Of a stretch of 64,000 nucleotides of DNA, positions 7,512 through 57,522 are shown one piece after another (the first letter of the stretch is position 1; the number at the start of each line of letters is the position of its first letter). The notes below the pieces were generated by a model. It saw nothing but the letters and a program-made list of their open reading frames with translations, was not told the origin of the DNA and made no database searches. The position numbers were made by a program, and so were the translations under genes. The DNA comes from Lepidodermella squamata (lineage: Eukaryota; Animalia; Gastrotricha): NCBI GenBank assembly GCA_047495785.1, contig JBLDXI010000042.1, positions 62,001 through 126,000 of the forward strand. Direction: 5' to 3'.

Positions 7512-7791
7512 TTATTTCAACCTAGCATCACTACTAGTTGACAATGCAAAAATATATGATTGTGACTCCAGGCAATAATATATGGATGGATCACCAAAGC
7601 TCTGAATCGTCCCAGGAAGGCCATCTTCGGCGGTAACACAGGGTATTGGTCTTCGCGTCGATTGGCATATGAGTGTCATGAGGGTAAGAGCAGCCTATGT
7701 GGAAATGAATCGTTAGGCTCTAAAGGGTATGATTTTGATTACGAGGCTTTCTTACCAAAACAGCGATCATCAATGCGAGCTTAGCTGCCAT
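7512..7791 (-). CDS. Small secreted Cys-loop peptide, single-loop form (72 aa, 2 exons)
   Basis: Exons 7791-7756 and 7694-7512: MAAKLALMIAVL|AALTLMTLICQSTRRPIPCVTAEDGLPGTIQSFGDPSIYYCLESQSYIFALSTSSDARLK*. Intron position matches the paralogues. Confidence 0.7.
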
Positions 7792-9902
7792 GAAGGACAA
7801 TATTTCGAAGTTTTCTTGAAGATAGAAAATTGAATAATGACATGAGAGTAGCTCATCTAGCTTATCGATGAGCACTCTGTCAGTCATTGTATGTTTTGTA
7901 TCATAGCGCACAACGAAAAAATGTTCGGTAGAATGATGACGTCAAGAGGCTTCTCATTAAAACGGCGATCACCAATGCGGGCTTAGCTGCTAATATATGA
8001 GTAATTAAATGATGAAAGAAAATATTCCGACTTTTTTTCTTGAAGATAGAAACCTGAATAGTGACGTAAGCACTCTAGGGCTTAAACTAACGGCGTGAGG
8101 GCGACTGATTCAACAAATTGAATAATTTCTTAGGCACTGATGAGAAATCGACTAAAAAAAGTTGACCGACTAAAAATGAAGGAAATAAGTTGAACACAGA
8201 CGACATGATGATCCTGCTGGTGAAAAAATAAAAATTTTTGGTGTTCAGATAATGAAATGGTTAATTATCTCTTTTTTTCAAAACAACCGAGTGCAACAAG
8301 CTTGGCGAACTCGTTCGACGATTGACGGCTAGTTCGAGCAGCGCCAAGACTCTACAATCACCGTTGTCGCTCCTTCACATCACGCTTTAGCGATATTTTA
8401 CAGGTGAGCTGCTTTCTTCTCTGGCTTCAATCTGAATTTTCATTGAATCAAGGTCTCAAGGTCGCCGATGTGCACTAAATAATTCTTGCAGCCGCCGCTT
8501 TTCCAGCCTAACAAACAATTTCAGCCAGCGCAACGGATCATTCAAATCAGTGGCAGAATGGCTAACGAGAAGTCACCTCTCCGTAAAACACTCTATTACC
8601 GCTACTATATCATAACCACAACAGCCCTGAAGCTCGAGCAGGAGAGCCAATGGCCCCAGCGAAACTTCCCTCCAAATAGGTTTTTCGAATCGGCCGAGCT
8701 TCTATTTTCTATATCTCAATATGGAATAACCAAAACTCTGGTGACTGGCAAACTGTGGACAACTTTTTCGCCTGAACTCTTTGGAAATTTCGCTTTTGAA
8801 TACTTATTCTAGTTACTTTTGATTTACTATTAAAATGCACGGTATTGGCTGTCGCGTCGGCATCCGAATGAATGCCATGATTTTAACAGCAGCCTATTTT
8901 GTAATAACGTGCTGAAATAGGCTACAAAGGGTATAAGTGACGTTAAGATGATTCTGGCTTCTGGCCTAAACAACGATCACCCATGCGAGTTTTCTTACCT
9001 ATGTAACTAATTTCGCTACACGATTTTGATTTTAAATGGATTTAAAATACGTTCGAATTCCCGATTATTGGTTCGAGTGCAATATCATGGCGTACCAAGG
9101 AACTCTTATGAATCATGATTTTGATGGTAAACATAACATGTGTATGCCAGCAGCTGATCCAATTTTGTTCATAAGGCCACGCATCTGTCTGTATAAATAA
9201 TTTACACAGACATTTAAATGTAATGATTAGATCCGGTTTTGACGCATTTGACTGTATTTATTAAATGTTAGCGATATGTAGCAAGCTAATGATTCATTCA
9301 CTTTTCACGGATATTTTAGCCGAACCGCCGATGCACTGGAGTTGAAGCTTGCCAGGACGCTCAGATTACAGGCTATTATTACGCAATTATAATTTGCCAA
9401 TATATTTCACGGTTTTAGCTGAACAGGGAAAGGAGGGCTATCGTACCCCCAGTTCGACAGGGCAAAGTGGGGAACCCGCGAAAAAACCACAGGGGGACCC
9501 TTTGGTCGTGAAACTTGGCCCCGAAAATACCCCGTAGCAGTGTGCGACTTTCAGGGGGGGATGGGGGGATCATCCCCCCAGCTCGGCGGGGCCAAACAAC
9601 AAAATGAGAATTTATCCCACTGTTTTGTTAATTTTGGAAGGCTCTGGGGCGTGTTTTAGTGGAAAATCTCCACAATTTTCTCGCTTCTCGGTTATTCGCC
9701 GAAATGACTCGTCATTTTGGCAAATACAGCAAAAAGTTTTTTTCCATCCCTGGGAGCTCGGGGATCGAAGATCGCACCCTGCCCCGTAGTTCGAGGATCC
9801 TACTTCGCGCACTGTAGCTGAAGACCATGAATAAAAACCGGAGAACACGAGAATATTGCCTTTACATGACGGGCAAAACATAACACGTTTGTTTAACACA
9901 AC

Positions 9903-10755
9903 ATGGATAAAGCGCGAATAAATTCTCGTTATATTCTCATACTATCTATCTTGCTTAACATTATACTTTTGTTAGCGTTTATTCGACCGAGTCGAAAATT
10001 AAAAAACTACTCGTATAATGCCAGTAACTTCACGAATTTTACTACAACCGGAATTTATTGGATCGACAAAATTGTTCGAGACAGCCCAAAGAACTCTCTG
10101 AGAATTTTCTTGCCGGAAAATAAGACGGATTTCGAGCCGGAAGCGGATGAAAGATGTAGTCTTGTTACCGGAAAACGAATCGTTTTGACCTTTGGCTCGC
10201 ACGGCCTTTACTTGAAACAGGCCGAGGCTAATTGTGCGATTACAATTGAAAATCCTGGAATCGACGCGTGTGTTGTGGCAAATTTGAAAGTTTTGGATGA
10301 GAGCTTCCGGTCTCGAAATCAGGAGAAAATACTGAGTGCAAAACGAGGAGCCGGCTATTGGCTGTGGAAGCCGTATTTGATTTTCAAGTTTTTGGTCGAA
10401 CTGCCCGAGGAGGATCAACTTTTGTACATGGATGGCGACAGAATGCTAGTAAACGATTTGGAAGAATTTGCCTGTCTTCAGGTTAGAAAAAACTGCTATA
10501 ATCAAATTGGACAAAGGGACCAAATCATTCTCTTATTTTTTACCGGTTTTTCAAGTGTCCATTCGACCCTTAGACTTGGAACCTTGGGTTTCGTTTGACC
10601 TCGTAACTTCCCCTATTCCTTCTTTTCAGGCGCAGTTGGGTCAGTCCGTTGTGCCGTTCTACCAACCATACGACGACCGTTCCTGGACGAAAGCTGACGC
10701 GTATTTCCTGTTGAATGTCGAAAATCTGCTGCCTAGAATAGCCGAAACAATGCAA
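9903..10755 (+). pseudogene. Glycosyltransferase-like copy 1, truncated in exon 2 by a LINE
   Basis: Exon 1 is 9903-10481 and exon 2 starts at 10630. Identity to paralogues stops at ..IAETMQ, where the (GAAAC)n LINE tail begins. The remainder of exon 2 is not found after the LINE. Confidence 0.85.
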
Positions 10756-12000
10756 GAAACGAAACGAAACGAAAAGCTTTTTATTGTGTCCTTTTTTTCA
10801 GCAAATTAATCAGGCCTAACGAAAAACGAAAATATAAAGGATGGAAGGGATGAAAAAAAGGCGCGGGCACAAGACGACAAGGCGCTTGTCCGGGACAGTG
10901 CGCCACTCAGAACATCGGACGGGCACACACTGAAGTTATCACCAGGAGCGGATTATCAGACACAGTGAAATACAGTATAAGACAGAAGACTAGTGACTAG
11001 TGGTAAGAAAGCAGAGACAGAAAGTAGGGGACGGAAGGAGAGGAGATAAGAAAATAAGCAGGAAGGGAAGAAGAGCCTGCTTTTCGCATGAAATTCGAAA
11101 CTCGCTATTGTTAAAGTTAGCATTCGCCATTCGTTGCGATCTCGCGCTGCTATTTGCGTCAGTTCCCAATCAGCTACTTCCTTAGTTTCAACCCTTATCA
11201 CGACCGCTGTTTTCGCCGGTCTCCCAACTTTCGGGGGTCCTTCATAAATTTTTGTGTATTGTAATTTGACCAATCCTATTTTTTGAGACTTCTGTTCATT
11301 GCGTGACGCCAGGTAGTTTTAGGTGCGCCTTAGGGTTTTTTCCATTTGTCGGGGTTATTCCAATTTAGCATTGCGTTTGTCAAGCTGCTAGCTTTATATT
11401 CATCTTCTCGAATAATGTGGCCTAAGTATCTCATTCTTTGTTTTTCTATCAACCTTCCGACCTCTATGACTCCACCGCAAACCAATCTGAGGTCATAGTT
11501 AGGTATGAAGTCCAATAATTTTATGCCCCAAATTGTTCGAAGCCATCGCATCTCAATTACATTCAGGCTATTTTCTTGTGCGACTGTTAGATTCCATGTT
11601 TCACACGCATACATGATGGTAGGAATAATCACACAATTTAGAACCTTCATTTTTGTTTCTATACTTATATGGCCTCTGTTGCACATAAATTTGTTCATTG
11701 CCCCAAATCAGCTCCCTGCCTTGGCGATTCGAGCGTTCAGTTCTTTATCCATTTTTCCGTCATTAGTAATTATGCTTCCTAAATATTTAAAAGAGTCGAC
11801 TTTTTCGAGTTTCTGATCACCTAAAAATAGTTCTTCATCTCCCTTGCCTCATACAACCATGTATTGGGTTTTCGCAAAATTAATTTTAAGTCCGAGTTCT
11901 ATACATGCCTTATTGAAAATGTCAAGGAGAGTTCGAATCTCCTCGTCAGTCATACCTATAAGCGTGCCGTCGTCGGCAAAAGCCAAAAGATTCAATAATT
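10756..12000 (-). mobile_element. 5'-truncated, decayed non-LTR retrotransposon (RTE-like LINE)
   Basis: RT motif LLAFADDGTLI at about 11960-11995, then F-KYLGS, PTIMYACETW, EMRWLR and RYLGHIIR, with in-frame stops. The 3' end has AATAAA followed by a (TTTCG)n tail. Confidence 0.9.
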
Positions 12001-12812: not shown

Positions 12813-14433
12813 ATGAATTTGATGCGAATAACATCTCATTTTATTCTTATACTATCTATCTTGCTTAACATTATACTATTGCTATCGTTTATTCGACGAC
12901 CGAGTAATCAACAATTCAAAACTCACTCAAAAAATGGCAGTAACTTCACGAATTTTACTACAACGGGAATTAAGTGGATCGACAAAATTATTCGAGAAAA
13001 CCCGGCAAATTCTCTTCGAGTATTCAGGCCCGATAATAGGACGGATTTCCAGCTAGGAGCGGATGAGAAATGTGGCCTTGTCCCTGGCAATCGAATAATT
13101 GTGACCTTTGGCTCGCATGGTCCTTACTTGACACGGGCCGAGATTTTGTGTTCCCTTGCTGTCGGAATTCGAGGAATCGACGCGTGTGTTGTGGCAAATT
13201 TGAATATTTTGGATGAGAGCTTCCGGTCTCGAAATCAGGAGAAAATACTGAGCTTAAAACGAGGGGCTGGCTATTGGCTGTGGAAGCCGTATGTAATTTT
13301 CAAGTTTTTGGTCGAATTACCCGAGGAAGATCAACTTTTGTATATGGATTCCGACAAAATGCTGGTTAACAATTTGGAAGAATACGTCTGTCTTCAGGTC
13401 AGTAAATTAATCGTGTAGTCAAACTTGTTTCTTATATCGGACTTCAAACCAAAATCGATATAAGTTTTTCAGGTTACCCTCTCTGGATCTTCAGAGGTTA
13501 GAACCTGGGTCCTTGGGTCCAGTGCGCGAGGTAGGATCCTCGAACTAGGGCGAACTATTTTCAGGCCCAAAGACCAAAGGCCCCCCCCCTGAGGTTTTTT
13601 TGAGTTTCTCCCTCTGGAACTGGGGTGTACGATACCCCTCATTCCACCGTACTTGGTGGCGCCCTGCTTGGGTTTCAATAGAATTTGTGTATTTGTGTAT
13701 TCCTGCTCTAATAACTGTGCGGAGTAAGGGAGGGTGAGGGGAAACAGGGGGTTCCTCGTGCACCCTCCTCAAGGGGTTCAGGCGAGAAAACCCGGAAAAC
13801 CACAGGGCGTACCCTTTGGTCAGATAAATTCGGGGTCGACAAAACCCAAGCGCAATCCCAATCCTAATCCATACACTAATCCATACACTAATCCATACAC
13901 TAATCCATACTACATTAATACATAATGTTCACTCGTTGATTTGCTCTGATTTTCAGGCGCAGTTGGGCCAGTCCGTTGTACTATTTTACCAACCATACGA
14001 CGAGAGCTCATGGACGAAAGCTGACGCGTATTTCCTGATGAACGTCGAAAATCTGCTGCCTAGAATAGCCGAAACAATGCAAGTCTACGGCGCGTATCTC
14101 ATGCTCCGAAAATCCCAGGAGTCTCTTCGATTCATCTCAGAATGGCTGACCTACGCCCAGGATGAACGGCTCATCGACGATCAGCCGAGCTCGCTACGCG
14201 AAGAACGACCCGGCTTCATCGAGCATCGCCATGATCAATCGATCCTCAGCCTGTTGTCGAAAAAGTGGAACCTAACAACATGGCCGAGTCCTGAATCGGC
14301 AAATTTCTCGGAAATCCTAGAAGATCGCGATTGGCTTGGGAATATTTGGACAAGCTTTAATCCGCTTGATGTTGAAAAGCTGAAACAGCTTAAAGTGAAC
14401 ATTCCGACGCGACAGCTCATCGAACAAGGATAG
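12813..14433 (+). CDS. Type II membrane glycosyltransferase-like protein, copy 2 (353 aa)
   Basis: Exons 12813-13397 and 13957-14433, phase-0 GT-AG intron. N-terminal hydrophobic anchor, RGAGYWLWKPY, YMDSD, WTKAD and EHRHDQSILSLL. Confidence 0.85.
13864..13911 (+). repeat. 12-bp intronic tandem repeat (CTAATCCATACA)x~4
   Basis: Read directly from the sequence. Confidence 0.8.
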
Positions 14434-18661: not shown

Positions 18662-18989
18662 ATGGCTAAGTTGGCTCTAATCATCGCAGTTTTCGTAAGA
18701 TTGAACAATTATCCTCTCATTTTGATATCACCATTTCCCCTAATAATAGGCTGCTCTAGCTGTTGTTCTCCTCGCGAAAAACAAAAAGCTAGGAGCAGCT
18801 TGCAGCAAGTACGGCAAAGGGCAGGGCCACTACGAGAAGGCTTCAAATGGCAAGTTGGTCTGCGTAAAGAACGATAAAGCGCGCGAATCCCAACCCGAAG
18901 CAGCTGCCCGTGAGGACTGCCTGCGTCATGGCAGGCCAGGCACGTGGCACGTGATCAACGGAGAGCGATGGTGCTTGGTTAAAGGTTAA
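18662..18989 (+). CDS. Small secreted two-loop Cys peptide precursor (90 aa, 2 exons)
   Basis: Exons 18662-18694 and 18750-18989: MAKLALIIAVF|AALAVVLLAKNKKLGAACSKYGKGQGHYEKASNGKLVCVKNDKARESQPEAAAREDCLRHGRPGTWHVINGERWCLVKG*. Confidence 0.85.
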
Positions 18990-20764: not shown

Positions 20765-22239
20765 ATGAATTTGATGCGAATAACATCTTACTTTATTCTG
20801 ATACTATCCGTCTTGCTTAACATTATACTTTCGTTTATTCGACTGAGTCGTCAACAGTTTAAAATTTACCCAAAGAATGTCACAACAACAGGAATTACTT
20901 GGATCGACAAAATTATACGAGACAACCCGGTGAAATCTCTTCGAATATTCATCCCGGAAAATAGGACAAATTTTACCTTGGCAGCAGATGAAAAATGTGG
21001 CCTCGTTACTGGCAATCGAATCATTTTGACTTTTGGCTCGCATGATGCTTACCTGGAACGGGCCGAGGCTCATTGCTCTATGGCTGTCGGAATTCGAGGA
21101 ATCGATGCTTGTGTTGTGGCGAATTTGAATATTTTGGATGAGAGCTTCCGGTCTCGGAATCAGGAGAAAATTCTGAGCGCAAAACGAGGAGCTGGTTATT
21201 GGCTGTGGAAGCCGTATGTCATTTTCAAGTTTTTGGTCGAACTGCCCGAGGAAGATCAACTTTTGTACATGGATGCCGACAAAATACTAGTCAGAAATTT
21301 GGAAGAATTCGCCTGTCTTCAAGTAAGTAAAACGTAAATTTCTAGGAAATTTTCAATGGGCCTGGAACCAAATTTACGTTGAGCGGAACCCAATTTGCTG
21401 TAGGGGAATCACATTTTGTAATATTCTAGTGACCTGAAATCACTTTTAAGATATTACATGCGGGTAAAGATTTGTCAAAATAATTTTACAATCACGAGAA
21501 AATTCAGCGCGATATTCTATATAGGACAAAGTTATCACTTAAATTAAAGTTATAACTGTAAATTTGTTTCCGCTGAAAGATATTCCGATTTTCGATAGCT
21601 TAGAAGGCGAAATACAAAAGCAAGCCAATTTAGAAAAATATGCAAATTTTTGAAAATTCTGATAATTTTTTACATAATTTCTTCACCCAAATTGTTTTGT
21701 CTTGAATACATTTTCTGATTAACGATTTTTTTTCCATAAATTTTTTACAGGCTCAGTTGAGGCAGCCTGTTGTACTATTCTACCAAGAATACATTGAGCG
21801 ATTGTGGACAAAGGCTGACGCGTATTTCCTAATGAACGTCGAAAATCTACTGCCTAGAATCGCCGATACAATGCAAGTCTATGGCGCGTATCTCCTGCTT
21901 CGAGAATCGCAGGAGTCTCTTCGATTCGTCTCAGAATGGCTGACCTACGCCCAGGATGAACGGCTCATCGATGATCAGCCCAGCGTCACTCGGCAGGAAC
22001 TGCCCGGTTTCATCGCACATCGCCATGATCAATCCATCCTCAGCCTGTTGTCGAAAAAGTGGAACCTAACAACATGGCCGAGTCCTGAAGCGATTTATTT
22101 TGATGAAATTCCGCAAGATAAGGATAGAAACGGGGCTATTGTGACAAGCTACAACCCGCTTGATGTAGCGAAGTTGAAGACGTTAGGATTCACTGTTCCG
22201 ACCGAAGGACAGCTTATCCGACATGATAACAAACATTGA
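20765..22239 (+). CDS. Glycosyltransferase-like protein, copy 3 (348 aa)
   Basis: Exons 20765-21322 and 21751-22239. All motifs are intact (YMDAD, HRHDQS). Confidence 0.85.
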
Positions 22240-24184: not shown

Positions 24185-24788
24185 TCGTCGTTGGCGGACG
24201 TAAGCGGACGCCTTCGATTTGCTCGCGAAGTGGTAGCACATGTCTGCAGGCATTCTCGGCGTAGCGGACTTGAACTTGCGAGACAAACTCCGAACGGCTG
24301 GGCAAGCGACAGCGCCGTTCGAGATCGGTGATGCGAGCGCGGTCAGCCTGGCAAACTTCCTAAATCAATTAAGAATTGTCAAAAAAATGATCTCCATTCG
24401 AAGAGTGAACCTTGACGCGAATTCTCGAGAAACTTGTCTTTGTTTCGGCCGGTCGGAGTACCGTACTCCCAGTCTCGCTACTTCTCTCACTTTTAAGTCA
24501 AGTCAATAATTAAGCCCGGTTTTTAAGCATCTTGAAGTTGTAATCTGGCTAGGTTTTCATCTTCTTTTTACACCTCTCACAGAATATCGGCTCCGTGAAT
24601 AACTTGCCTTTGATCGAGTCGTTTGGTTTGTAGAAATTATGCTTACGTTTACGAATGTTAAGCATTTCGAGAATAAGGCAATCCCGTTTAGTTTGTCCCT
24701 TGCAAAAGGACAAACTAAATGGGATTGTCTTATTCTCGTTGAAATAAATGAGTCATGTTTCGCAAACATCAGATAATCAGATTTATTA

Positions 24789-27700
24789 ATGAATTACATG
24801 CGAATAGCATCTCACTCTAATCTCGTAATATCCATCTTGCTTAACATTATACCTTTGCTATGGTTTGCTATGGAATTCAAGATTTACTCAAAAAACGGAA
24901 GAAATTTCACGAAAGAAATTCATTGGCTCGACAAAATTATTCGAAACAGTCCGGAAAATTCTCTTCGAGTATTCAGGCCTGATAATAGGACAGATTTTCA
25001 GCTAGGAGCGGATGAAAAATGCAGCCTAGTTCCTGGCAATCGAATCATTTTGACCTTTGGTTCGCATGGTCCTTACCTGGAACAGGCTGAAAGTTATTGT
25101 TCATTAGCTGTGAAAATTCGAGGAATCGACGCGTGTGTTGTGGCGAATTTAAACATTCTGGATGAGAGCTTCCGGTCTCGGAATCAGGAGAAAATACTGA
25201 GCGCTAAACGAGAGGCTGGCTATTGGCTGTGGCAGCCGTATTTAATTTTCAAGTTTTTGGTCGAACTGCCCGAGGAAGATCAACTTTTGTACATGGATGG
25301 CGACAAAATGCTAGTCAACAATTTGGAAGAATACGCCTGTCTTCAGGTGAGCAAACGTTGTTCCTTATCTCGGACCTAAATTCGTTTAGGTATTTCCAGA
25401 GTAAGTTCCCCTCTCCCGACCGTTCTTTAACCCTGGACCTGAGGCTTCGATAGAAAGTTGTGTAATAGTCAGTTTCTTATTAGTTTGCGAAGTAGAGCAG
25501 CGGTTCCCAAACTTTCTTTCTCGTAGGGCACAGTAGTGTCCTATGTGAATGGCTCGGAGGATAATAACGTACAAAAATGTGCCCGGACTCTTGAAGAGGC
25601 ATTGCACGCACAGTACGCATAGTTTGGGAAACGCTGAAGTAGAGAGAGGGGGAAGGGGGTTATAGGGGGTTCCTCGAACCCTTACCACCCTCTTCGAGGG
25701 ATCCAGGCAAGGAAAACGGAAAAAGCCTCTTTGGTCAGATAAATTCGGGGTCGACAATACCAAAGCCATAGCGTAAGCCCCACCACGCTCATTGATAAAT
25801 AACACTAGAAAAAAAATTTAGCTTTTTAGCCAAATAAAAAGCCATCGCCTCAAGAGGGCTAATAATGCTTCCTACGTACCCTTATTTAGCTTTTTTCGCT
25901 ATTCAACCAACAGCTATTTAGATATTCGGTTATTTAGCTTCTTGCATGTCGTGTCTCAGCTTGCTTGCGTAACAATGGGGCCGCAATCGACCGCAGCTGC
26001 TCACTTTCTCCTTCCTTCAACCCAAAATTTAAAAGATAAAAAGATAAAAATCCATGTCTCTTTTTGGCTTGAGATTTTATTTATTTTTTTCAAGTCTTCA
26101 TTTCACAATTTTTCATCACAGTTATCACAGAATGAGGTACACATTTTAAACGTAATTTCAATTGGCAGGACAAAGCTGTGAAATATTTTCTGCTCGATTT
26201 TCGAATTTTCGAATTTTCCATCTGCTTGAAATTGATTGTTATCACTATTTGAACGCCGAAATTTGCTCCTGAAATTTGAACAATTGCTTATTTCGAAAAT
26301 TTGAAGTTTTCAGAATTACTTACCTCTGTATCCGTATAGAAGCCGCCTCAATTTTAGATACTGAAAGAGAAAATTGGAAATTTTATTACGAGGGAGAGAG
26401 AGAATCAATACATGAACTTGAAAATTTTCTGTCAAAATTCAGAGGCAATACCTATGCAATATTAATTTAGAGTTCATTAAAATCTAGAACCACGAATATA
26501 CCTTCGATTTATGTTTCGGATAGCCAAGTCAGATAAGCCGATTTCCATGTTGCCGTCGTCCAAGGTGACCATGTCCGTTTCGCAACGCTGCCTTCAAATT
26601 GCCCCGGGATTTGATTTGAAATTAGCGGCATTCCGGCCTTGAAACGAATAAGTCACAGATATTTACGTGAAAGATTCCATGGGTAGAATTTCGATTAGCG
26701 ATTACCGTATTAGCTCCTATAATAACTCGGTCAATTAAAATGTCAACCTCGATATTTTTAAAAAATTTTACTAAAAATCAGCGGAATTTTCGGGAATTTG
26801 AAATTTCATAAATTTTCCTAAAAAATTGAAAATTAATTATCCGCATATTTTGGTTATTCATAATCGGCTCTGTAGAGATTTCACATGATGTTTTTGATAC
26901 TTCAAGGAAAATAACGAATGTGACAATCTTCAAAAATTAAAAATTAAAAGAAAATCAACATTTTTAAATTCTAATATTTTAAATAAGGATGAAACTGAAT
27001 TTTAATTCAATTGAAAATTTTCGGCGTGACAAAAGTCTCATTTTCTAGAAAATACTGGAGTTTTCCTCACCTTGAAGCAACGAATTTCACACGCAATGGT
27101 CTTGAACTGAGGTCACCAACATTCTTCTGAAAATTCAAAATAATTTTCAAATTTTAATCAAGTAAATTGATGAAAGAATTATTTGTGATATTTACCGAAA
27201 TTTCCGCTCCAATGCATTTTTAGGAATGATTTCAGCTCAACATACAAGACTTACAATTTTGACAAAATTTTTGGAATTTCAATGAAAGATTCCCGCAAAA
27301 ATGAACGAATAATAAAACCTCTAGCTAACACGAGCCTCCTCAGGTTAATGTGTTAATTGAATTGTTATTTTTCGCGCTGCAGTAGTTAGGCAAGATGTTG
27401 AAGCTCGTGCTAGCTGGAGGAAATTATTCTGATTTTTCCCGTAATTTTTGTCAAATTTTAAAAATCTTTTGATAAAAAATAACAATAATTATGGATTGAC
27501 ACGATGACAGATCTTACCTGGCGTCAACTCGATTTGAAATTATTCCGTTTAAAGCTGCTTGGGATATTTTAGCTGAAACTGCTAGGGTCGTAGCATTTTG
27601 AAAACTAAGTGGCAATAATGACTACTTTTTTGCTTCTGTGTGCATGGATGAAAAACGAATGAAATGGAGCTTCGAGTAGCAATCAGAAAGGGTCACAGCC

Positions 27701-35929: not shown

Positions 35930-36180
35930 CTCAGCTGCGGAACATCGCACCCCGCAGCCATTTCAAATCGCATACAATTCAAGCCGTAGATTTTCTATGC
36001 TTTTTCTTCACGGCCGAAAGGGGCGAGGCACATGTCAGTATACCACTTGTACCGCTTTAACCCATTTGCCTAAAATCGGCCCTACATAGGAGAAAGATTC
36101 CCCTTCCTCTGCTACCCGCGCCGCTTCCGCCGGCTGCACTTCCTTGCAGCCGGATGATCTGACACAGATAGCTACTCTTC
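35930..36180 (-). pseudogene. Fragment of a Cys-loop peptide gene
   Basis: ICVRSSGCKEVQPAEAAR..GKWVK.. is frameshifted, lacks the signal exon, and is followed by the family 3' UTR motif. Confidence 0.65.
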
Positions 36181-39475: not shown

Positions 39476-39997
39476 TATTATAGTAATTGAGCGATGATGG
39501 AAAAGTGTAAATAATATATCAACGAATACAAATTACTACTACGAATGCTTTGTTGTTCCGTGTTCGCAGTACTCTCTCTGTGTTATCAGCTGTATTTTGA
39601 TCTTTTTGTCATCCGAAGTGACGAAGAATATTATTACAGCGACTATTTTACTGACAAAAATATATGTTTGGCTTGAATAGAATAGAACTTCACCTCTTGA
39701 ATTGAGCAACTCGAACCTTCTTATAGGATTTGAGTGACAATCATTTCCCTCAATTTTCCTGCATTAGTGAGTGCGACGTATTATCTCCGAGCTGGGGAAT
39801 ATTTTGGGGTAATTTTGGGGTAAAGACCTCCCTGGGGTGTTTCCGTGTCTTCATCTCGGAACCTTGGAACCTTGGCATCTTAGGCCGGATTTTGCGGAGT
39901 CAAAGTCCAACTACGTGTTGCTCTGATGGTCGATATGATAGCATCAATGGGATCAATGGGGCTTGGCAGCACGCGATTCTAACAATTGATTAATATA

Positions 39998-40174: not shown

Positions 40175-40519
40175 TAGTATGAAAAAAAATCGCACCCACC
40201 AACCCGACCAGCCCCACTATCGCGACCGACCCAGCAACAAGTAGTTTGACACTGCATATCCAGACTAAGATCTTCTAACTCCCCGCCCCGCAACATCTCT
40301 TCCTGTATCCCACGCGGATTGCTCTCTGGGTACCCACGGCAATCCTCTCTAGAAAAACGAAAAATACGATTCATAACGAAATTATAATTGAAATATCGCC
40401 ATTGATGAAAGCATTGAGGCAATGCGCTCTAAAGACGTATTCAGCTAAAATGTCGACTATCCAATAGCCAAAACAAATATACTTACTTTTGTTTTGAAAA
40501 GCACACTGTCATTTTTTTC

Positions 40520-40685
40520 ATGATCTTAAATAGAAGCCTCACTGCCATTCTTTCTTCCATTACCATTATTTTACTACTCGGAATAGCTTCTCAACACAAT
40601 AATCGATCCAAAGACTGCGAACAAGTGCGGCTAAATAACAACCGATCGAGCGGAATTGAATGGCTCGAAAAAATCTACCGAAATC
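40520..40685 (+). pseudogene. Glycosyltransferase-like copy 5, 5' stub only
   Basis: MILNRSL..SGIEWLEKIYR matches the N-terminus of copy 7, then switches abruptly to unrelated sequence. Confidence 0.8.
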
Positions 40686-41653
40686 TAGCAAATTTTCCAA
40701 ATCCATTTAAGTGGTTGAAACGTCGTAATTTTTTTCTTAGTGGTGCAGTAGGGTCCATCTTATCTTGCAACGTGAAAGAAATGTTGATGCCAAGGAAGGA
40801 AACCAATCAACAAGCGGTTCGCGGACAAATTTTAACATCAAGCAACGTCAGAAATTTCTCAAATTTCATGATTTTGTTATTAATCCAGCCGCGAAAACTT
40901 GAAAATTCTCTTGAAACCTTTAGCTTCAGTTCTCAAGCAATAGAGCTGCCTAGAAATTTAACAATTTGGCAAGCAGCAAATGATTTTCTTGCCAAAGACA
41001 TATCGCTATCATGGGGTCTATGTATGGCGGCGGGACGAAACTGAGATCGGAGAACTCGAGGCAGCCAGACCCGTTGGACCGATTTCGAAACTACAACTGG
41101 ACATCTCTAAATGAGTTCCGCGACTGGAACGCTTCCATTCATTTTGGTCAACGCGCCACGCCGGGTTTCAGGTGCCACTGTCGATACTTTCAAAAGCAGT
41201 ATGTTTGCGGCCATTCGTTGGGCTTCGATGTTCAGGTTCTTAACAAGCCGAAACCCATCTGGGTCCAGTTGGAGCTTTCAAAGCTGGAAAGGCGCAACAA
41301 GCCCGGGCGTCCACCGAGAGACAAGCTAGCTTTAAAAGTTGACGTTCCAGCTGTGACACCGTTGCCTGGCTGGGATGTTGACCAGGTTTCTCGCCTCGCT
41401 ACGAGCAACACGCTGATCCTAAATTCATGTTGAGTTGAACATGTTTTCGAAACATTTTTTCCGAGTTTCATCGAATTATATGGCAATAATTATGGGGACT
41501 TAACTTATTGCCGATGGTGAATCCTAAAGAATACAAGGCCCTGCCTATTAATACGGTTCTGCCCTTTATTGTTTCAAATGACCACTGCCATCTGCCCTTT
41601 ATTCCGGTTCTGCCCTATAATTGGGTCCTGCCTAATAATTCGTAAAATACAGT
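40686..41653 (+). mobile_element. 3' fragment of a DNA transposon with a SWIM zinc finger (MULE-like)
   Basis: FRCHCRYFQKQYVCGH (CxC-x7-CxH) followed by KPGRPP..AL. Subterminal ctgccc(t)ta repeats end in aaatacagta. Confidence 0.65.
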
Positions 41654-43635: not shown

Positions 43636-46600
43636 TCAATTAAGCTTCATTCTCTTCATAGGCGAGTGTGCACAGTTCGATTCCGTTCTCCACCTGAGAA
43701 TGTCAATGGTTATCCTCTTGGTTACCTCCCACACGTTATCGCCGCAATTCTGAGCGAGGAGCAGAGCTGTCCAGCCTGTCGACGGTGCACTGTAATTGGC
43801 ATCAGCTCCCGCCTCCCGTGTTAGAACATCTACAACGTTGTAGTGACCATTCACTGATGCACACATGAGCGGTGTCATCCATTTTTCAGATGGCGATGTT
43901 TGACCGAGTATCCTCGCCAACCGAGATGAGACCTCATTGTTGATGCACAGAGCATTTACATCGACTTTGAATTCTCCGGCAAGAATTCTCACGATATCCA
44001 CGTGCGCGTACTTAACAGCGCAATGTAATGGAGTCTCGCCATTTTTATCAGAGGCATTAACGTCAGCTTTGAATTCTCCGGCAAGATTTCTCACGATTTC
44101 CGCGTGTCCATTCACAGCGGCACGATGCAATGGAGTCCTGCCAATAAGATCAGAGGCATTAACGACAGCTTTGAATTCGCCGGCAAGAATTCTCACGATA
44201 TCCGCGTGTCCATTCTGAGCAGCGGAATGCAATGGAGTCTCGCCATTATGATCAGAGGCATTAACGTCAGCTTTGAATTCGCCGGCAAGATTTCTCACGA
44301 TTTCCGCTTCTCCAATCTCGGCAGCGTAATGCAAGGGAGTCTCGCCATTTTCTTTAGAGGCATTAACGTCAGCTTTGAATTCGCCGGCAAGAATTCTCAC
44401 GATATCCGCGTGTCCATTCTGAGCAGCGGAATGCAATGGAGTCTCGCCATTATGATCAGAGGCATTAACGTCAGCTTTGAATTCTCCGGCAAGAATTCTC
44501 ACGATATCCGCGTATCCATTCTCAGCAGCGACATACAAGGGAGTCCTGCCATCTTTACTAGATGCATTAACGTCAGCTTTGAATTCGCCGGCAAGAAGTC
44601 TTACGATATCCGCGTGCCCGTACTTAACAGCGGAATGTAATGGAGTCTCGCCATTATGATCAGAGGCATTAACGTCAGCTTTGAATTCGCCGGCAAGATT
44701 TCTCACGATTTCCGCTTCTCCAATCTCAGCAGCGTAATGTAATGGAGTCTCGCCATTTTCTTTAGAGGCATTAACGAAAGCTTTGAATTCGCCGGCAAGA
44801 ATTCTCACGATATCCGCGTGTCCATACTTAACAGCGATGTGCAAGGGAGTCCTGCCATATTCATCAGAGGCATTGACGTCAGCATGGTATTCGCTGGCTA
44901 AAATGCTCACGATTTCTGCATGTCCATTCTCAGCAGCGATGTGCAAGAGCGTCTCGCGTTCATAATTAATTTCTCTAAAATTACCTGCCTTGGCAAGAAT
45001 TTTTAAGATCTCGGCGTGTCCTTCTCGGGCTGCGATGTGTAACGGTGCCATGCCATCTCTCGATTTTGCGTTTGCTATAGCTTTGAATTCCACTGCAAGT
45101 AAAATAACCATGTCCATGTGGCCTCCGAGCACGGCCAAATGTAAGGGTGTATAGCCCGAATTCATAATCGTGTTCACATCTTTTATGAAATCAGATGCTA
45201 GCAATTTTGCAACTTCAGTCTGACCTTCCAACGCAGCAACATGTAACAAACTCATGCCTTGCTCATTCGTTATTTGAGTGTTCGCTCCCATTTCTTTCGC
45301 TAATAATCTAACCATCGTTGATTGGCCGTTCTCCGCTGCAGCCCATATCGGCGTCTTACCATCTGCAGCTGCCGTCTCAACACTTCTCTGTGGCAATCGT
45401 CCAAGTATTCGTGCAATCTTTGTTCGACCGTTATTAGAGGCGACGTACATCGGCGTTCTTCCCAGTAGGTCCGTAGATAATGGATCAGCCTTGAACTTTG
45501 TCACCAGAAGATCTACTATATCATCATGGCCCTCTTGTGCAGCCAGAAACAACGGGGTAACACCTTCGTCATTCTTACAGTTCACATCCAAATTCAAAGT
45601 TGTATTTGATAACAGCGATTCAATTTCTGCCGTGTTGTGTTGCCTGATGAGTCGAAAGAGATACTGAAACGACGGAATAGAAGTACAGTGTGTCCAAAAA
45701 ATTTTGCAACATTACAAATCAATGCAGCTCCCTCATTTTGGCGAATTTTTCCATGATCAAGACAGATTCTGAAAACTCAAATCACCGCGTTTTTTTCGAT
45801 ATCCATTTTATAAAAATCAGCCTTAAAATGAGTGCACAAACAAAGTTTGAAATGAAAAAATGCAATTTCTTTTTGACAACGACTTTTTCACCGCTATTTT
45901 CGTTGTTTAATCGTTGCATGTGGCCTCCAACGGTCAAAGCCCGTATAGTTGAGCTTTACTTTACTCACGGCAACTCTCCGACGTCTGCCTGCAGAGCCTT
46001 CCGGCTCGAAAACAGAGGCTCAACCAGTTTTAAAGTTCCGGATCGTTCGTTGGTATTGAGATGGGTATCAAATTTCCGGCGACGAGGATTAGTCAAGAAC
46101 AATCGAGTTCCACATAAGAAATCGAAGTCAACGCCTGCAGTCATTCAACGAGTTCGACGAAACATCAAGCGTCGGGTTAAACTCCATCAACCAACATCAT
46201 TGCGAGCTGTTAGTGAGAAGTGGGGTCTGACGAAATCAACATGCAGGAACATTTTCAAAAAGGAACATTTCGAAAAGTCGTTGTAATTTTGAAAATTATT
46301 TTTTTGCACATTATCTGTCACATCTTTCTCATTTTTGAACTTAACGCTATGTGAATTTAACCAAATAAACGCGGTGATTTGAGCTTTCAGAATCTGTCTT
46401 GATCATGGAAAAATTCGCCAAAATGAGGGAGCTGCATCGATTTGTAATGTTGCAAAATTTTTTGGACACACTGTATATCTACGAATTCATTATCGAATCC
46501 ACATACCATCTGCGCAACTTTTGGATCCAACAACTCTGTGAAACTGATCTCATGCGCATTGTTCAGGATTAGCGGAGAATTTGGATCATTCAAAGATTTG

Positions 46601-49600
46601 AGTAGATCTAGCGGCGGCATACGCCTCGAACTTTCTTTCACCAAAAATGCCAAAATTATGTTTTGGAACTCGGGCGAATAGCCACGCGAATCGTTAAAGG
46701 GTTTTCGAATGTTTCTGAAAATGTGTTATCGTGATTCTCCTAAGATTTTCAGGTAAAGAACTTACAGCATGATATCCAGGGCATTCTCAAACTGGGAAGA
46801 AGCCACGTGGTAAAAGAGTAAAAGACTTGGAAATAAAGCTAACAGGCCTGTAAAAATTGGCTAGCTCGAACAAAGTTACGCCCAAAGACCACCAATCGCT
46901 TTCGTTCGAGTGCTCATTTTTGCCAAATAATTCAGGCGCCATGTACAGTTCGGTACCAAGCCTGAAGTTGTACGCTGTCCTTTGGATACTGTTTGAAGAG
47001 CTTGAAGAGTTGTTGACACATTGCGGAACATTTATTGTAATGAATAAATTCATCAGTTTTTACCTATCATATATTTTCGTCAGACCAAAATCGCCGAGTT
47101 TTACCAAACCGTTTTGCAGGAAAATATTTGTCGGCTTGATGTCGCGATGGAGCGCTCGCTTTTCATGCAGAGCAGCCAGTGCTGAAGCCAGTTGTAGCGA
47201 CCATTCTAATAGCAAATCTTGAGAAATGGGACGTCCGTTTGCTTTCTTCATGTAATCATCCAAGTCTCCACCCGAACAGTATTCCATGACAAGGTAATAA
47301 ACAACAGCTCCAGATGTTTCTTTCTCTGTGGTATTAAAGGAAGCAGCCGTGTTAAAAGCAAAGTTCAGCTCGTCAGAAGTCTATTTTAGGAATTGTCCGG
47401 TTAAATAATGGAGCAATATGTTTTTTGTTAAGAAAGAATAGAAAAGAAAATCCATATTACTCTAGGCGAAGCTCACATAATAATATAATAACATAATAAG
47501 AATCCGCCTCCAATAATGTCGCCCGAGCAAAGCGGGACGCTGATTTCATCGAGCGAAGCGAGAAAAAACACTTGAAACTCTTCGAACGAAGCGAGATCAC
47601 TTTTCTAGTTTCAGAATGAAATTCGTTTAAAAATGCCGTTTTCATCGTACAGTTTTAAGGTTGATTTTTTAAAGTCGCATTTCACACCAGAAAATAACCT
47701 ATTATGTCACATTTTTCCATTTAAATTGCAGTTTTATCGGGAACGGTGAACGCTTCGCCTTGAGTAATATGTCTAATAAGGCCCACGGTACGGGAAAATC
47801 GCATAATAAGACTCGGCTTCGCCTCGCCTTATTACATTATGTTTCCGATTTTCCGGGTCAAAGTCCATTGTCAGCCATTGCTGTCATCCATCAGCCACAG
47901 TCAGCTCGCGTGTTGTCGTCCAGAGAGCTTGGTGACTTGGTGACTTGGTGACTTGGTCGTGTCATTGCAATTTTCAATGCAAATTTCGCATGATTTTTCC
48001 AGGTGTTACTTATTACACTGCAGCACCTATAACCTTTATTTTGTACCTGTATCATCAATAACCATGACATCATCGACAAGCTTTTCGTTTTGATAATTTT
48101 TCAGGTCAAGGTATCTATGCTTTGATGACTTACAAACAAATTGTTTTGAGAAATTGAATTTAGGGGAAAGGAAAACATAAATATTTGGTTTCACTTTTTA
48201 CTGACTTTTAGCTTGGGGTAAAACTGAATAAGATGGGAAGCAGAATGCATTTGCAGAAGTAATGAATTTTCAAATATTTCTGGAAAATATCGCGATTGAT
48301 AAGCAGAAATCCAAAACAATTTTCTGCATAAGGCCTGATCATCGCTTTGAGATCATGGCCTGCTTTGCCTTATTTGCCGATTTTCCTGCATTTTTAAAGA
48401 AGTCACTGTTTTTAACTTGGTTGCGTTTATGGTGCCAGGATCTAAACTTAGGCTCCGTTATCCGGATTTTATGATTTTTGACGCCGGATAACAACCATAT
48501 CCGGGTCTTATCGGTGGACAGCGATGGATATTCGTCCTTCAGGCCACCATTCCGGCGTTCGGCTGCGCCCCTGGCCCACATAGAAAGCCTTCTTGCCTTC
48601 AGGCCAATATCCATCGTGCTATCCACCAATGATATCCACCCGGATATTGTATGCAACAAGCAAATTTGGCTCTGCTAAAAATATTCTGTTTGATAATAAG
48701 CATACATCTTGGTGTGATGTCTCCTTTTCACCTAAAAGACGGAAATTAGCTTTGATTTGACTCCAATTAACACATGGTAACATTGAGTTGCGCCCACTCG
48801 GCAAATCTTTAATCTCAGTGCTACTCATGTCATGTTTTGTAGCACCAAACCTGTAAAATGTTTAATTGCATCATTTTGATTCACCATCGTTGGCCATGTT
48901 ATTAAACAGTGGTTAAAAGTCCCTGAATTACTTGAAAAACTCGTTACGAACTAAACGCAAGAGATTAACATAGACGTAACCGCAATTCACCCGTTTCTTG
49001 ATAGCAGGTTGCAAGAGACTTCCCGATCATTTTCTGAACACACTATATGTGCTGCAGTGTAATAAGTAACACCTGGAAAAATCATGCGAAATTTGCATTG
49101 AAAATTGCAATGACACGACCAAGTCACCAAGTCACCAAGTCACCAAGCTCTCTGGACGACAACACGCGAGCTGACTGTGGCTGATGGATGACAGCAATGG
49201 CTGACAATGGACTTTGACCCGGAAAATCGGAAACATAATGTATGTGAGTTTTTCCTCGAAACTAGCCTTCCCTAGGGCCTTATTTATACATATTTTTTTC
49301 TCTACGCTTTCAAGAGACGAAATGGCTTAGGGGTGCCAATAAGGCTCGAAGTTAGTTCGCTTAAAGTAGGTTGACATAACCTACCTGTAAAAGCTCCAAA
49401 AACATAAACAACATTAGGATGTGACAATTTGTTTAATTTCTCATGCTGCAAAAGCAACAGCTGCAAAAGAGGTCGCAACTAGATGAAATCGTTACCTCTT
49501 CCTTGCTCAATTTCACCAGCCTTTCTGCGAAAGTTGGTTCCGCAGCAAATATTTCACGAATTCGCGTGAGATTTACTGCCTTGACAGCGTAATGTGCCAC

Positions 49601-49711
49601 GTCGTTGCTCCGCCTGCATAGCATCGTAGAGCCGAAGTAACCTCTTCCCAATGACTTCTCGATTTTGAAGTCCTGCATTGAATAATACGTATTTTCCACA
49701 CCTGCCGCCAT
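43636..49711 (-). CDS. NIMA-related (NEK-like) Ser/Thr kinase fused to a long C-terminal ankyrin array (about 7 exons)
   Basis: Exon 49711-49496 (LGRGYFG, YAVK), 49445-49386 (LSHPNVV), about 47326-47064 (MEYCSGGDL, LHRDIKPTNIFL, KLGDFG), the YMAPE/SDWWSLG exon, two further exons ending at 46507, and a last exon 45663-43636 (about 18 ankyrin repeats). All junctions checked splice in frame. Confidence 0.88.
43950..44950 (-). repeat. 102-bp tandem coding repeats (34-aa ankyrin units)
   Basis: Recurring gaggcattaacgtcagctttgaattc(g/t)ccggcaaga at 102-bp spacing. Confidence 0.92.
45686..46473 (+). mobile_element. Internally deleted Tc1/mariner-superfamily element in an intron
   Basis: Terminal inverted repeats of about 105 bp (CAGTGTGTCCAAAAAATTTTGCAAC..) with TA flanks. 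The internal ORF retains only the N-terminal HTH region (RIVELYF..S..SA.RAFR..P.RS.V.RWV.NF). Confidence 0.88.
47766..49293. mobile_element. Palindromic non-autonomous element, Crypton-like, in kinase intron 2
   Basis: Outer imperfect inverted ends aatatgtctaataaggccc and gggccttatttatacatatt, an actcggcttcgcctcg motif near the left end, and an apparently perfect inner inverted repeat of about 194 bp (47833-48026 and 49049-49242). Confidence 0.7.
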
Positions 49712-50311
49712 GATTGCCCATCGTTGAACAAAATGAATTCAACATACAGTATGCATTAGGCAAATAGCAAGTTACACATTAAGCTGAAAAAACGATGACT
49801 ATAACTATATGTTATATTCTATAGGTATATGACATTGAATTAATTGTATAATATAAAGGCAAGTACTTGTACACGTAAGAAAATGACCGCAACAACATGC
49901 GTATTTTTTGGCGAAACATTTACTTGTAGTACATTTGACATTTGTACATTTGACGCCAGCTAAATGGTGAAAAGTTCGATTTACTATAATATTCAGACAT
50001 AGGTAATGATGTGCCATCAAGGGTCACAGGTAGCGGGGACCAGTGTGCGAAGTAGGATCCGGGTGTTTTCTACTTGTTTTCGAGGTCCCCCCTTTGGTTT
50101 TTTCAACCTTCCTCTGATTAAGGTCCCCGAGCTGGAGTGTCGCGACACCCCAGCAACCGTGTAATTCGCACCCTGCAATACATAAACTAGTTGACTTTCA
50201 TAGGAGAATTCAAGTTAGATTTTTACTGATTTGATACTAGGTTTGATATATATTTTTTACTCAATAATTATTTACAAAAAATGAACGAAACATCAACGCA
50301 GTTTATTTGAA

Positions 50312-50668
50312 TCAGTTCTTGATATAGATTACAGTGTTCTTATTAAGTGGTCGTGCAAGAGAAGGCTCGCACTCCTTATATAGATTGCACCTCGTTGAGC
50401 CGATGGTGATATCAAAGGCGGCGCACTGTTCCGAGGCCGAGCATAGTTGAGCGCAGTTTTCAGGCTTCGACACGACATAGCGGCGGAATTCTGGCAACTT
50501 GCAGCGGTGACTCACAGGCGAGTATCTGGCAATGATCGGCTTTGAAAGATGACCTGAGTCGAATTTCGGCGATGTGACCTGATTTAAACGATCCAAGGTG
50601 ATTATTGTTGCTGCTATGAGGCAGAATACAACAATGACTGTGCACACGCTATAAATGTTTGTCGGCAT
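50312..50668 (-). CDS. Single PAN/apple-domain microprotein, copy 2
   Basis: 118 aa, collinear with copy 1, all Cys conserved. Confidence 0.8.
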   Translation of the reverse strand: MPTNIYSVCTVIVVFCLIAATIITLDRLNQVTSPKFDSGHLSKPIIARYSPVSHRCKLPEFRRYVVSKPENCAQLCSASEQCAAFDITIGSTRCNLYKECEPSLARPLNKNTVIYIKN

Positions 50669-51327
50669 TATTATAGTAATTGAACGATGAAGAAAAGGTT
50701 GACATATTATATTAAGGAATACGGATTACTACTACGAATGCTTTGTTGTTCCGTGTTCGCAGTACTCTCTCTTTGTTATCAGCTGTATTTTGATCTTTTT
50801 GTCATCCGAAGAATATTACAGCGACGATTTCTCCGACAAAAATATGTTTGGCTTGAATAGAATAGAACTTCACCTATTGAATTGAGTAACTCGATCCTTC
50901 TTGAAGGATTTGAGAGAAAATTATTTCCCTCAAATTTCGTATTATTTTAGTGTTCTCCAGCAGTGTGCGACCTATAATCTCCGAGCTGGGGAATACTTTC
51001 GAGTAATTTTAGTAAAGGCCCCTTTGGGCTATTTTTGTGTCTTCTATCTCGGAACCTCGGAACCTTCTCCCTCCCCGCCCCCTCCCATCTCTTCCTGTAC
51101 CCAATGTACTTCACACACTGCTCTCCAGGTATCCACGGCAATCCTCTCCACAGAGGAATGAAAAATGCGATTCAATACGAAATTAGAATTGAAACATCGC
51201 CACTGATGAAAGCATTGAGGTAGCTTTAAGGCAGTGCGCTCAAAAGAAGTATTCAGCAAAAATGTGGCGTACCCAATAGCCAAACAAATATACTTCCGCT
51301 GTGAAAAGCTCACTGCCATCCTTTTAA

Positions 51328-54326: not shown

Positions 54327-54647
54327 CTAACGCCGACCACAAGCTCGAGGAACGCAGGGCATAAACCTATTATGCTCGATCGCTTCGTACCGCGCTGCTT
54401 CCGCCGGCTGCGCTTCCTCGCGGCCGGTTGCTCTGGCGCACATCAGGCCGCCGTGACCGTTTTTTACCAGCACACCCGGAGCGCCCCTGCCAAGTACGCA
54501 GTGGTCTCCTTCCTTTCTTTCTGCGACTGCCATGAGAGTTACAGCGGCCTATGTGGAAATGAAATATCAGGCTATTACAAAGGCTATACATGACGTGAAT
54601 CCGCTTCTCACCAAAATGAGGATCACCAATGCAAGCTTAGTTGGCAT
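54327..54647 (-). CDS. Small secreted Cys-loop peptide precursor
   Basis: MPTKLALVILIL|AAVTLMAVAERKEGDHCVLGRGAPGVLVKNGHGGLMCARATGREEAQPAEAARYEAIEHNRFMPCVPRACGRR*, with the conserved intron. Confidence 0.8.
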
Positions 54648-56289: not shown

Positions 56290-56650
56290 TGCATGCGACT
56301 CCAGCCTAATGCTGACTGCATGATTTTCTTCCATTTTGACTTCTAACAATGCCACGCTTGCCGTCCTTCCTAACGCGCAATTCCCCATCTCATGCCGCTT
56401 CGGCCGGTTCAGCTTCCTCGCGGCCGGATGATCCGCGGCAGATCAGAGAGAGTTAGAGCTTTTGACCAGTTTACCCTTAACATTCCCATACAATAGGCAT
56501 GTATCTCCTACCTTTTCCTTTTGTTTTGCGGCTGACACTAGAGTAACAGCGGCCTATGAGGAAAAGAGAGGAAAAGAAGCGTTAGGCTACAAAATGAATG
56601 AAGTTGAGAGGCTTCTCACCAAAACCACGATCGTCAAGTTTAGTTGCCAT
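56290..56650 (-). pseudogene. Two-loop peptide pseudogene, closest to the 30150-30568 copy
   Basis: Exon 1 is only 31 nt (frameshift). Exon 2 retains GDTCLLYGNVKGKLVKSSN and GREEAEPAEAA*. Confidence 0.75.
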
Positions 56651-57197
56651 TAGTAGCATTACAGTCCGGCTTTGCAGGATCAAAGTCCACGTTTAGCAGA
56701 TTAATGGCATTACTGCGCTTTTTTCTACTGCGTGCCCTGTGCTATATATAAGATATTTCGATTCCAAGTCCATCTGGGCGTCATAATTGATGATTAAGCT
56801 TAAGGGCTGACATCTGACCTGATGCCTTATCAATGGTGGCGGCGGCGAGACTGATGCAAGAAATTGAAAAATTTTCCTAATGAAAATATTTCAACGCGTG
56901 TTTCAGCACTCAAATTGATGATACGAACTATTTTAAATTGTTGAGTTTATCCTTGACAGAATCGAAGCCATACGTGGAAGTATTTTTCCTGGGCTGCTTG
57001 AAACTTACGCGTTACGCGTGATGTAAAAAGGTTTCAATCACTGTGGATTGTGGGCTAGCAAATTTCCACTGTCCCAGATTTCATTTTTATTGCAACACAG
57101 CATCACGACTAGTTGACAATGTAAATATACATTCACGAGCTTGCTGCTCTCTCCTCATCGCACCCAGCAGCCATTTCAAATCGCATGCGAGTCCACC

Positions 57198-57522
57198 TTA
57201 GTGACGTCTGCAGACTTTTTTGCCTTTGCGATGCCTAACAACGCCAGGCTTGCCGTTCTTCCTAGTGCACTTTTCCCCGTTTCGTGCCGTCTCCTCCGCC
57301 TGTGCCTCCTCGCGGCCGGTAGACATGGCGCAAGCCAGTTTGCCGTCAAACCTTTTTACCATCACACCCGGAGCACCACGGCGATAACAGCTCTCCTTCC
57401 TTTCTTTCTGCGGCTATCATGAGAGTAATAACGGCCTATGTGGAAATGAAACATTAGGCTAAAAAGAGTATACGTCAAGTTCTCACCAAAATGACGATCG
57501 TCAATGCAAGCTTAGTTGCCAT
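57198..57522 (-). pseudogene. Two-loop peptide gene with one frameshift near the first Cys
   Basis: MATKLALTIVIL|AVITLMIAAERKEGE, frameshift, then RGAPGVMVKRFDGKLACAMSTGREEAQAEETARNGEKCTRKNGKPGVVRHRKGKKVCRRH*. Confidence 0.75.

Follow-up and report, generated by a model that had tools for sequence, protein, structure and literature searches.

A family of small, probably secreted cysteine-loop precursors in the gastrotrich Lepidodermella squamata and its likeness to a phage and bacterial repeat

Results

A family of two-exon genes in the window

The window analysed here is a stretch of 64,000 nucleotides (nt) of Lepidodermella squamata (contig JBLDXI010000042.1, positions 62,001 to 126,000, forward strand). 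It holds a family of small genes for probably secreted precursors, which have one or two cysteine-closed loops and, in most copies, an acidic spacer, and these loops resemble a repeat of phage and bacterial proteins. A DNA profile built from the seven main loci (A, B, C, E, F, G and H) and searched across the window matched exactly ten places and no others, namely seven two-exon genes, one fragment (D) and two remnants (Table 1). The family described in an earlier sequence-only reading of this DNA is therefore real, but it is smaller and less cationic than first reported.

In all seven genes a GT-AG intron of 51-66 nt lies within the N-terminal hydrophobic stretch. In six of them it is in phase 0 after codon 11, 12 or 13, as had been claimed for every copy except the fragment; the exception is G, whose exon 1 has 31 nt and is out of frame. 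A hydrophobic stretch following a basic N-terminus was found in all five frames read (best 12-residue mean hydropathy 2.7-3.3), the signal ends being placed by eye. Each precursor contains 2-4 Cys. The spacing of 17-21 residues between the Cys of a loop and the homology of the two loops to each other, both part of the original description, were borne out. The acidic spacer, said to be conserved, is present in B, C, E, F and H, altered in D and G, and missing from A.

Unbroken frames are found only in A, B, E and F. Only copy B keeps two whole loops (C-x19-C and C-x17-C, with the spacer between them) in an unbroken frame; its C-terminal residue is Gly, a predicted amide donor. Copies E and F have lost loop 2: both read loop 1 (C-x19-C), Gly-Arg and spacer, followed by a short tail in E and by a remodelled tail with C-x4-C in F. 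Copy A has one acidic loop (C-x21-C, charge -3) and a third Cys near the signal end. In copy C the frame is open through loop 1 and the spacer, and loop 2 is split by a 78-nt insertion (about 30197-30274) that supplies the stop. Part of this insertion recurs at positions 10756-10801, where it interrupts a broken copy of a glycosyltransferase-like gene (89% over 46 nt); it is probably a small mobile element.

The remaining copies are decayed. Copy G has a frameshift at the end of loop 1 and a stop after the spacer. In copy H the exon-2 frame ends after 29 codons at 57346, and both C-x18-C loops are in another frame. A contig of run X1 spans positions 57150-57461 of this copy with four substitutions and no gaps; with no gap there, the break is not confined to the present assembly, even if X1 may derive from the same sample. 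The remnant near 8890, which had been called an exon-1 remnant, does contain exon-1 sequence but also holds the intron and the start of exon 2.

Twenty X1 contigs fall on 411 bases; 11 of them are less than 90% alike, and one intron end common to three contigs is absent from the window. These contigs suggest that further copies are likely to exist outside the window, their depth giving no copy number. Run X2 gave just 21-22-base matches.

The motif WGATAA, with a window background of 2.3 per kb, recurs at the same place, 33-41 bases before the start codon, in five of the seven copies (B, C, E, F and H), the diverged B included. It may bind a GATA factor that directs expression in gut or epidermis. 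A hairpin in the 3' untranslated region, seen by eye, was discarded, since it did not surpass shuffled sequences (z -1.05 to 1.24) and had no compensatory pair; an Rfam search gave no match.

Table 1. Members of the family, neighbouring genes of the window and loci elsewhere that carry the related repeat (aa, amino acids).
Feature	Position or locus	Strand	State	Details
Copy A	7512-7791	-	unbroken, 72 aa	exon 1 7791-7756, intron 7755-7695, exon 2 7694-7512
Remnant	7935-8053	-		upstream region plus exon 1, without start codon and donor site
Decayed A-type remnant	8870-8992	-		exon 1 in part, the intron and the beginning of exon 2 (profile positions 59-169)
Copy B	18662-18989	+	unbroken, 90 aa	exon 1 18662-18694, intron 18695-18749; AATAAA at 19120
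Copy C	30150-30568	-	frame 30568-30258, 84 aa	frame with loop 1 (C-x20-C) and spacer
Fragment D	35943-36169	-		last part of loop 1, then an altered spacer and a decayed loop 2; without exon 1
Copy E	36478-36774	-	unbroken, 78 aa	intron 36738-36679; AATAAA at 36356
Copy F	54327-54647	-	unbroken, 85 aa	intron 54611-54549; AATAAA at 54240
Copy G	~56300-56650	-	pseudogene	breaks in both exons
Copy H	57198-57522	-	broken	frameshift just before loop 1; AATAAA at 57091
Glycosyltransferase-like two-exon gene, about six copies	9897-10809, 12813-14433, 20765-22239, 24777-29241, 40433-41044, 60582-61798
Small PAN-domain-like gene, three copies	39119-39532, 50312-50725, 59574-60074	-
Signal-like start, two sushi-like exons, ankyrin repeats	33560-35167	+		unusual combination if one spliced product
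16-repeat ankyrin exon and NEK-like kinase	43636-45711 and 46387-49738	-
Prohead-protease loci with the repeat	L034-L067, L069-L071, L075, L077, L080; P0016; L030			often Patescibacteria-type prophages
Myxobacterial SGL-type propeller protein	L084:1-2535	-		long array of the ~38-residue four-Cys repeat
Myxobacterial SGL-type propeller protein	L085:1-2142	+		long array of the ~38-residue four-Cys repeat

Charge and predicted fold of the loops

The loops had been described as often strongly cationic, which goes too far. From Cys to Cys the charge is +3 and +2 in B, +3 in C, +3 in E and +2 in F, so that the unbroken genes reach +2 to +3, with A at -3; values of +4 and +8 occur only in H (57198), the most cationic example of the original description, whose loops lie behind the frameshift. 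The predicted first peptides have a net charge of +7 in B, +5 in C, +4 in E and +2 in F, and a Gly content, counted by hand, of 20-24% in C, E and F and of 14% in B.

AlphaFold modelled copy B as two three-strand units with a predicted local distance difference test score (pLDDT) of 72-79 (mean 69 over the model), joined by a disordered spacer with values below 50. The phage protein P0017, which carries the related repeat described below, was also predicted with three strands per unit (mean pLDDT 78). Each of the two alignments contained rows of the other group. The arenicin- or thanatin-like hairpin originally suggested gains no support from the three-stranded sheet predicted for each loop or from the Pfam search: for the second exons of A, B, E and F it returned neither BRICHOS nor any other family, and copy C gave two irrelevant weak matches. 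With either model, a fold search of the PDB gave no match at an expectation value (E) up to 0.001, the best being fibronectin type I at E 0.04 with the phage model, and a search by Z found none at Z of at least 2; this lack of matches does not make the fold new. A viral structure library yielded two weak matches with low template modelling (TM) scores. The PDB searched by sequence gave nothing for alignment A1 and three chance-level matches for A5.

Selection on the spacer and on loop 1

The counts that follow rest on about 20 codons. In the spacer we found no replacement change in the pairs C-E, C-F and E-F, against 5, 5 and 4 silent changes (Fisher p 0.0007, 0.0007 and 0.004), and in comparisons with B there were 4 replacement and 8-9 silent changes. 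These substitution patterns make it clear that the spacer is under purifying selection. Considering that it is kept in E and F despite the loss of loop 2, it is probably a C-terminal pro-piece serving peptide 1.

The pooled coding part of E and F is also under purifying selection (11 silent and 10 replacement changes, p 0.007), and loop 1 is conserved between these two copies (5 replacement, 6 silent, p 0.055). When C, E, F and H are compared in pairs, the replacement divergence of loop 1 is 0.36-0.46, as compared to 0.16-0.26 in intron and upstream DNA; the excess over non-coding DNA is seen in five of six pairs (p 0.0008-0.044), the pairs not being independent.

A related repeat in phage and bacterial proteins

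A profile of six exon-2 stretches was searched against 1.84 billion proteins and gave six matches at E up to 0.001, with whole-protein E from 3e-6 to 4e-4. This significance holds for whole proteins because the scores of repeats are summed; no single-domain match was significant database-wide (best E = 1.1). Two of the six, P0014 and P0015, were rejected as repeat-inflated noise, their domain scores being below 8 bits. The other four contain 2-4 tandem copies of one motif and comprise the phage HK97-type prohead protease P0016 and three unnamed proteins (P0017, P0018 and P0019). The apparent link between the window loops and this repeat had not been seen in the sequence-only reading and is new here.

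The repeat follows the pattern G-D-x-C-x4-G-x2-G-x-hydrophobic-x5-G-x-L-x-C. A Cys spacing of 19 is the commonest (46 of 64 phage loops), the median loop charge is -4 and only three of the 64 are positive. It behaves as one coherent family, since held-out groups, scored with profiles of the remaining ones, have best values of 28-49 bits. The repeat also occurs in a large virion-region protein (L001-L014). In prohead proteases it is optional, with 0-4 copies after the protease domain: two are present in L030 and none in L031-L033. At the same position L031 and L032 have a different Cys repeat. Loci L015-L029, which encode baseplate-like proteins without the module, were dropped.

The codon pattern of the repeat was found in 35 viral contigs, all of which score as the module and about 26 of which are prohead proteases by eye. 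The same pattern was found in 13 contigs among 596 billion bases of prokaryote genomes: seven look like chance and six carry prophage-type proteases, five of these contigs being titled as Patescibacteria-type organisms. In sampled genomes of four phyla, matches to a joint profile were found in 0 of 401, 3 of 251, 1 of 401 and 0 of 301; these samples yielded a single prophage copy, together with four weak matches, none of them above 24.8 bits. Three of the four weak matches are in secreted myxobacterial propeller proteins that carry a four-Cys version of the repeat, of which 21 were extracted. The four-Cys repeats of L084 and L085 match the phage module with a median of 24 bits, and one secreted propeller protein has about 14 copies. 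In this version both Cys of the window loops are retained and a further pair is present, and many repeats have G-x-C. Conservation of both window Cys supports the view that they would be paired in the window loops.

No model in Pfam, PHROG or NCBIfam names the repeat, and searches of PHROGs and NCBIfam gave nothing for the window peptides. The genomic contexts of P0018 and P0019 were not found, and P0017 was found neither in genome contigs nor in the phage collection. Searches for further relatives of the peptides gave three chance-level matches of the E loop in the phage collection, 164 pattern matches in metagenome contigs of which none was confirmed, none of 2417 candidates at E up to 10 in a word-index search with alignment A1, and no usable match for B in the ESM Atlas. 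In our literature searches we found no description of the family or the repeat, of the spacer motifs, or of a cysteine-rich repeat in a phage prohead protease.

Common origin or convergence

The exact consensus pattern (two Cys, four Gly, Asp and Leu) is present in E and F only, with two matches in the window and none in 100 shuffles; it was, however, designed with E and F in view. Profiles free of window sequences gave E 32-36 bits (its best match to the phage repeat is at 36568-36642), F 28-31, C 11-25 and loop 1 of B 10-19, with loop 1 of A and both loops of H at 5-14 and loop 2 of B at about 0. The best loops, E and F, are thus on a par with held-out phage repeats. When both Cys were fixed, none of 1000 shuffles reached E, F or loop 1 of B under any of three profiles. 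With a phage-only profile (66 modules), seven copies rank 1-7 of 2170 six-frame window segments, and with the myxobacterial profile six copies rank 1-6 and A is tenth. Since the window profile had itself served to retrieve the seeds, out of a very large database, these scores and rankings are not fully independent.

This weighs against homology, as do the length of the module, 29 residues, and the fact that any small stapled sheet would favour a terminal disulfide and Gly in its turns. Taken together, the profile scores incline us modestly towards a common origin of the loop and the phage and bacterial repeat. Given a common origin, we rank horizontal gain ahead of an old animal module unsampled so far. 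Precedents in kind are an antimicrobial peptide gained horizontally between insects (excerpts of 10.64898/2026.03.03.709459) and foreign fragments fused to animal genes (excerpts of PMC13389597).

Neighbouring genes and elements

The window is eukaryotic in character, with 41.6% GC, short introns and fragments of transposons; its glycosyltransferase-like, PAN, ankyrin, sushi and kinase genes are duplicated (Table 1). The glycosyltransferase-like copies have no Pfam match and show a weak Atlas likeness to nucleotide-diphospho-sugar transferases; several are broken or have very long introns. Each PAN-domain-like copy is paired head to head with a copy, or the remnant of a copy, of the glycosyltransferase-like gene, an arrangement that indicates segmental duplication. 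A Tc1/mariner-like element with 124-nt inverted ends (45678-46481) lies between the ankyrin exon and the NEK-like kinase, and a second element, with 199-nt inverted ends, is at 47833-49242. At 556-1068 there is a 15-nt tandem array of 12.7 copies, whose open frame reads an acidic Gly-Asp-Ala-Asn-rich repeat. Four neighbouring acceptors read end in TTTTCAG, TTTTCAG, TTTACAG and CTTTCAG, and one neighbour gene weakly resembles, in the Atlas, a cluster made up mainly of nematode sequences (0.83, rank 19). From these features alone a nematode source would seem likely; a search with the kinase brought up no close relative.

Discussion

A secreted multi-peptide precursor family evolving by birth and death, as originally put forward, is supported by the hydrophobic N-termini, the constraint on the spacer and five or six decayed copies; the antimicrobial or toxin role suggested with it stays putative. 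Among known systems, the precursors of ant hymenoptaecins share with the window genes a signal, repeated units and a short Glu/Ala/Pro-rich acidic spacer (EAEP in the ant) beside basic residues (excerpts of PMC3415428). They differ in their dibasic RR/KR sites, whereas the window sites are single Arg, and in their linear glycine-rich units, whereas ours would be disulfide-stapled; sequence similarity was neither seen nor tested. With arenicin and BRICHOS precursors the family shares one disulfide, here predicted, closing a large ring and, in most copies, a net positive charge (excerpts of PMC13001179 and PMC6780910); the window precursors have 72-90 aa as compared to 202 aa, three predicted strands rather than two, fewer aromatics and a lower charge. 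The rings enclose 17-21 residues, which sets them apart from thanatin as defined in excerpts of PMC13001179.

Nematode diapausins, CS-alpha-beta peptides and nemapores have six or more Cys in a fixed array, as compared to two per window unit and 2-4 per precursor (PMC10506718), although they too are small, secreted and expanded. The nematode GRSP are defined as secreted linear peptides of up to 200 aa with mature Gly above 17%, Gly repeats and a C. elegans GRSP as nearest match; C, E and F have comparable Gly contents, but their units are closed by Cys and lack Gly repeats. The parts of PMC10414684 that we consulted report no assay of the Cys-rich candidates, and five family motifs searched against part of its supplement gave one match, to an unrelated Steinernema protein. 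The family would work like a multi-peptide defence precursor and is not a member of the arenicins, the thanatins or the Cys-defined nematode groups.

The reading that we prefer, though it falls somewhat short of being probable, is that these are secreted precursors cut at the spacer arginines to give disulfide-stapled, net-positive defence peptides. Removal of the signal would leave a short lead-in of basic or mixed character ahead of loop 1. Copies C, E, F, G and H have, before their spacer, a Gly-Arg, which in peptide precursors generally is read as a cut and amidation site; the cut would fall after the Arg that opens the spacer, with the preceding Gly as amide donor. The spacer may then be trimmed as X-Ala/X-Pro dipeptides or cut again at its last Arg, which would free loop 2; release of this kind is described for the ant hymenoptaecin precursors, although at dibasic sites (excerpts of PMC3415428). 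The products would be peptides of 25-35 residues, each predicted to form a three-stranded sheet stapled by one disulfide. During transit the acidic spacer could mask the positive peptide, which may finally bind to a target in microbes or to their anionic surfaces. Insect antimicrobial multi-peptide precursors are known to have acidic X-Ala/Pro spacers (excerpts of PMC3415428), and in nematode cecropins an acidic pro-region may mask the basic peptide (excerpts of PMC6780910).

Several observations weigh against this reading. To our knowledge, the phage and bacterial relatives have no antimicrobial role. Loop charge is modest and copy A is acidic; the predicted peptide has one aromatic residue in E and none in F, while arenicin-1 has a charge of +6 and many aromatics; and the cleavage sites are single arginines, unlike the dibasic sites of insect multi-peptide precursors. 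The window loops lack the gamma-core GXC-X3-9-C (defined in PMC9820530) and read G-x-hydrophobic in its position. Phage rows were part of the alignment behind the fold prediction for B, which therefore leans on the homology under discussion. The neighbouring glycosyltransferase-like and PAN-domain families are duplicated and decayed too, so that the region as a whole may be prone to birth and death of genes. Finally, in no pair does the replacement rate of loop 1 exceed its own silent rate, the two being about equal between lineages. Relaxed constraint thus explains the change as well as positive selection does, and the pattern of substitutions fits either.

The same precursor layout, with a conserved signal and intron and a fast mature region, would also suit gland-secreted binding peptides or toxins acting on prey, hosts or competitors, the stapled sheet serving as a scaffold whose variable face is aimed at receptors, channels or proteases. 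The mixed charges, including the acidic copy A, and the presence of other apparently secreted duplicated genes nearby (PAN, sushi-ankyrin) agree with this, but no solved toxin or inhibitor was matched by sequence nor, more weakly, by fold; we place it second and consider it unlikely. A role as surface, cuticle, mucus or gamete-coat peptides acting as adhesive or recognition modules could be argued from the related modules, which may act in this way in structural and secreted proteins and are optional tandem repeats in linkers (0-4 in prohead proteases, about 14 four-Cys copies in the myxobacterial propeller protein). The strong selection on a short Arg-flanked spacer, even without loop 2, points to processing instead of a mere separation of binding modules and makes this role improbable.

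Slightly less probable again is that the family is dying, formerly functional and now silent, with the open frames as leftovers: six of ten loci are broken and E and F lack loop 2, but change is biased to silent sites between E and F and in the spacer, and splice sites and polyadenylation signals are intact. Lineage-specific neuropeptide or hormone precursors are the least probable, since typical neuropeptide genes are not fast-diverging and mostly decayed as these mature regions and copies are, and no Pfam match was found, even if the signal, the Gly-Arg amidation-type site, the acidic spacer and the terminal Gly of B would suit them.

Returning to defence peptides, the module may have come from a phage or bacterial repeat, its acidic surface being reversed to basic. 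The complete scenario, in which the animal took an acidic disulfide repeat from a phage or bacterium, added signal, intron and spacer, reversed the charge and expanded a defence family with a three-stranded, one-disulfide fold, is doubtful as a whole. It would combine pattern, Cys spacing of 19, tandem repetition and a predicted three-stranded sheet, which the loops share with the phage two-Cys and myxobacterial four-Cys repeats, with marked differences: the phage repeat is acidic and embedded in larger proteins, whereas the window loops are mostly basic and stand after a signal and an intron, beside a selected spacer.

If the peptides are active, the known repertoire of nematode defence peptides would be extended by a three-stranded scaffold with one disulfide and about 30 residues, and such peptides are easy to make and test. 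The analysis also identifies a small domain that the searched libraries do not describe. The link of the window loops to this repeat of phage head proteins and secreted myxobacterial proteins would make the origin of an orphan animal peptide family open to testing, which fast divergence usually prevents.

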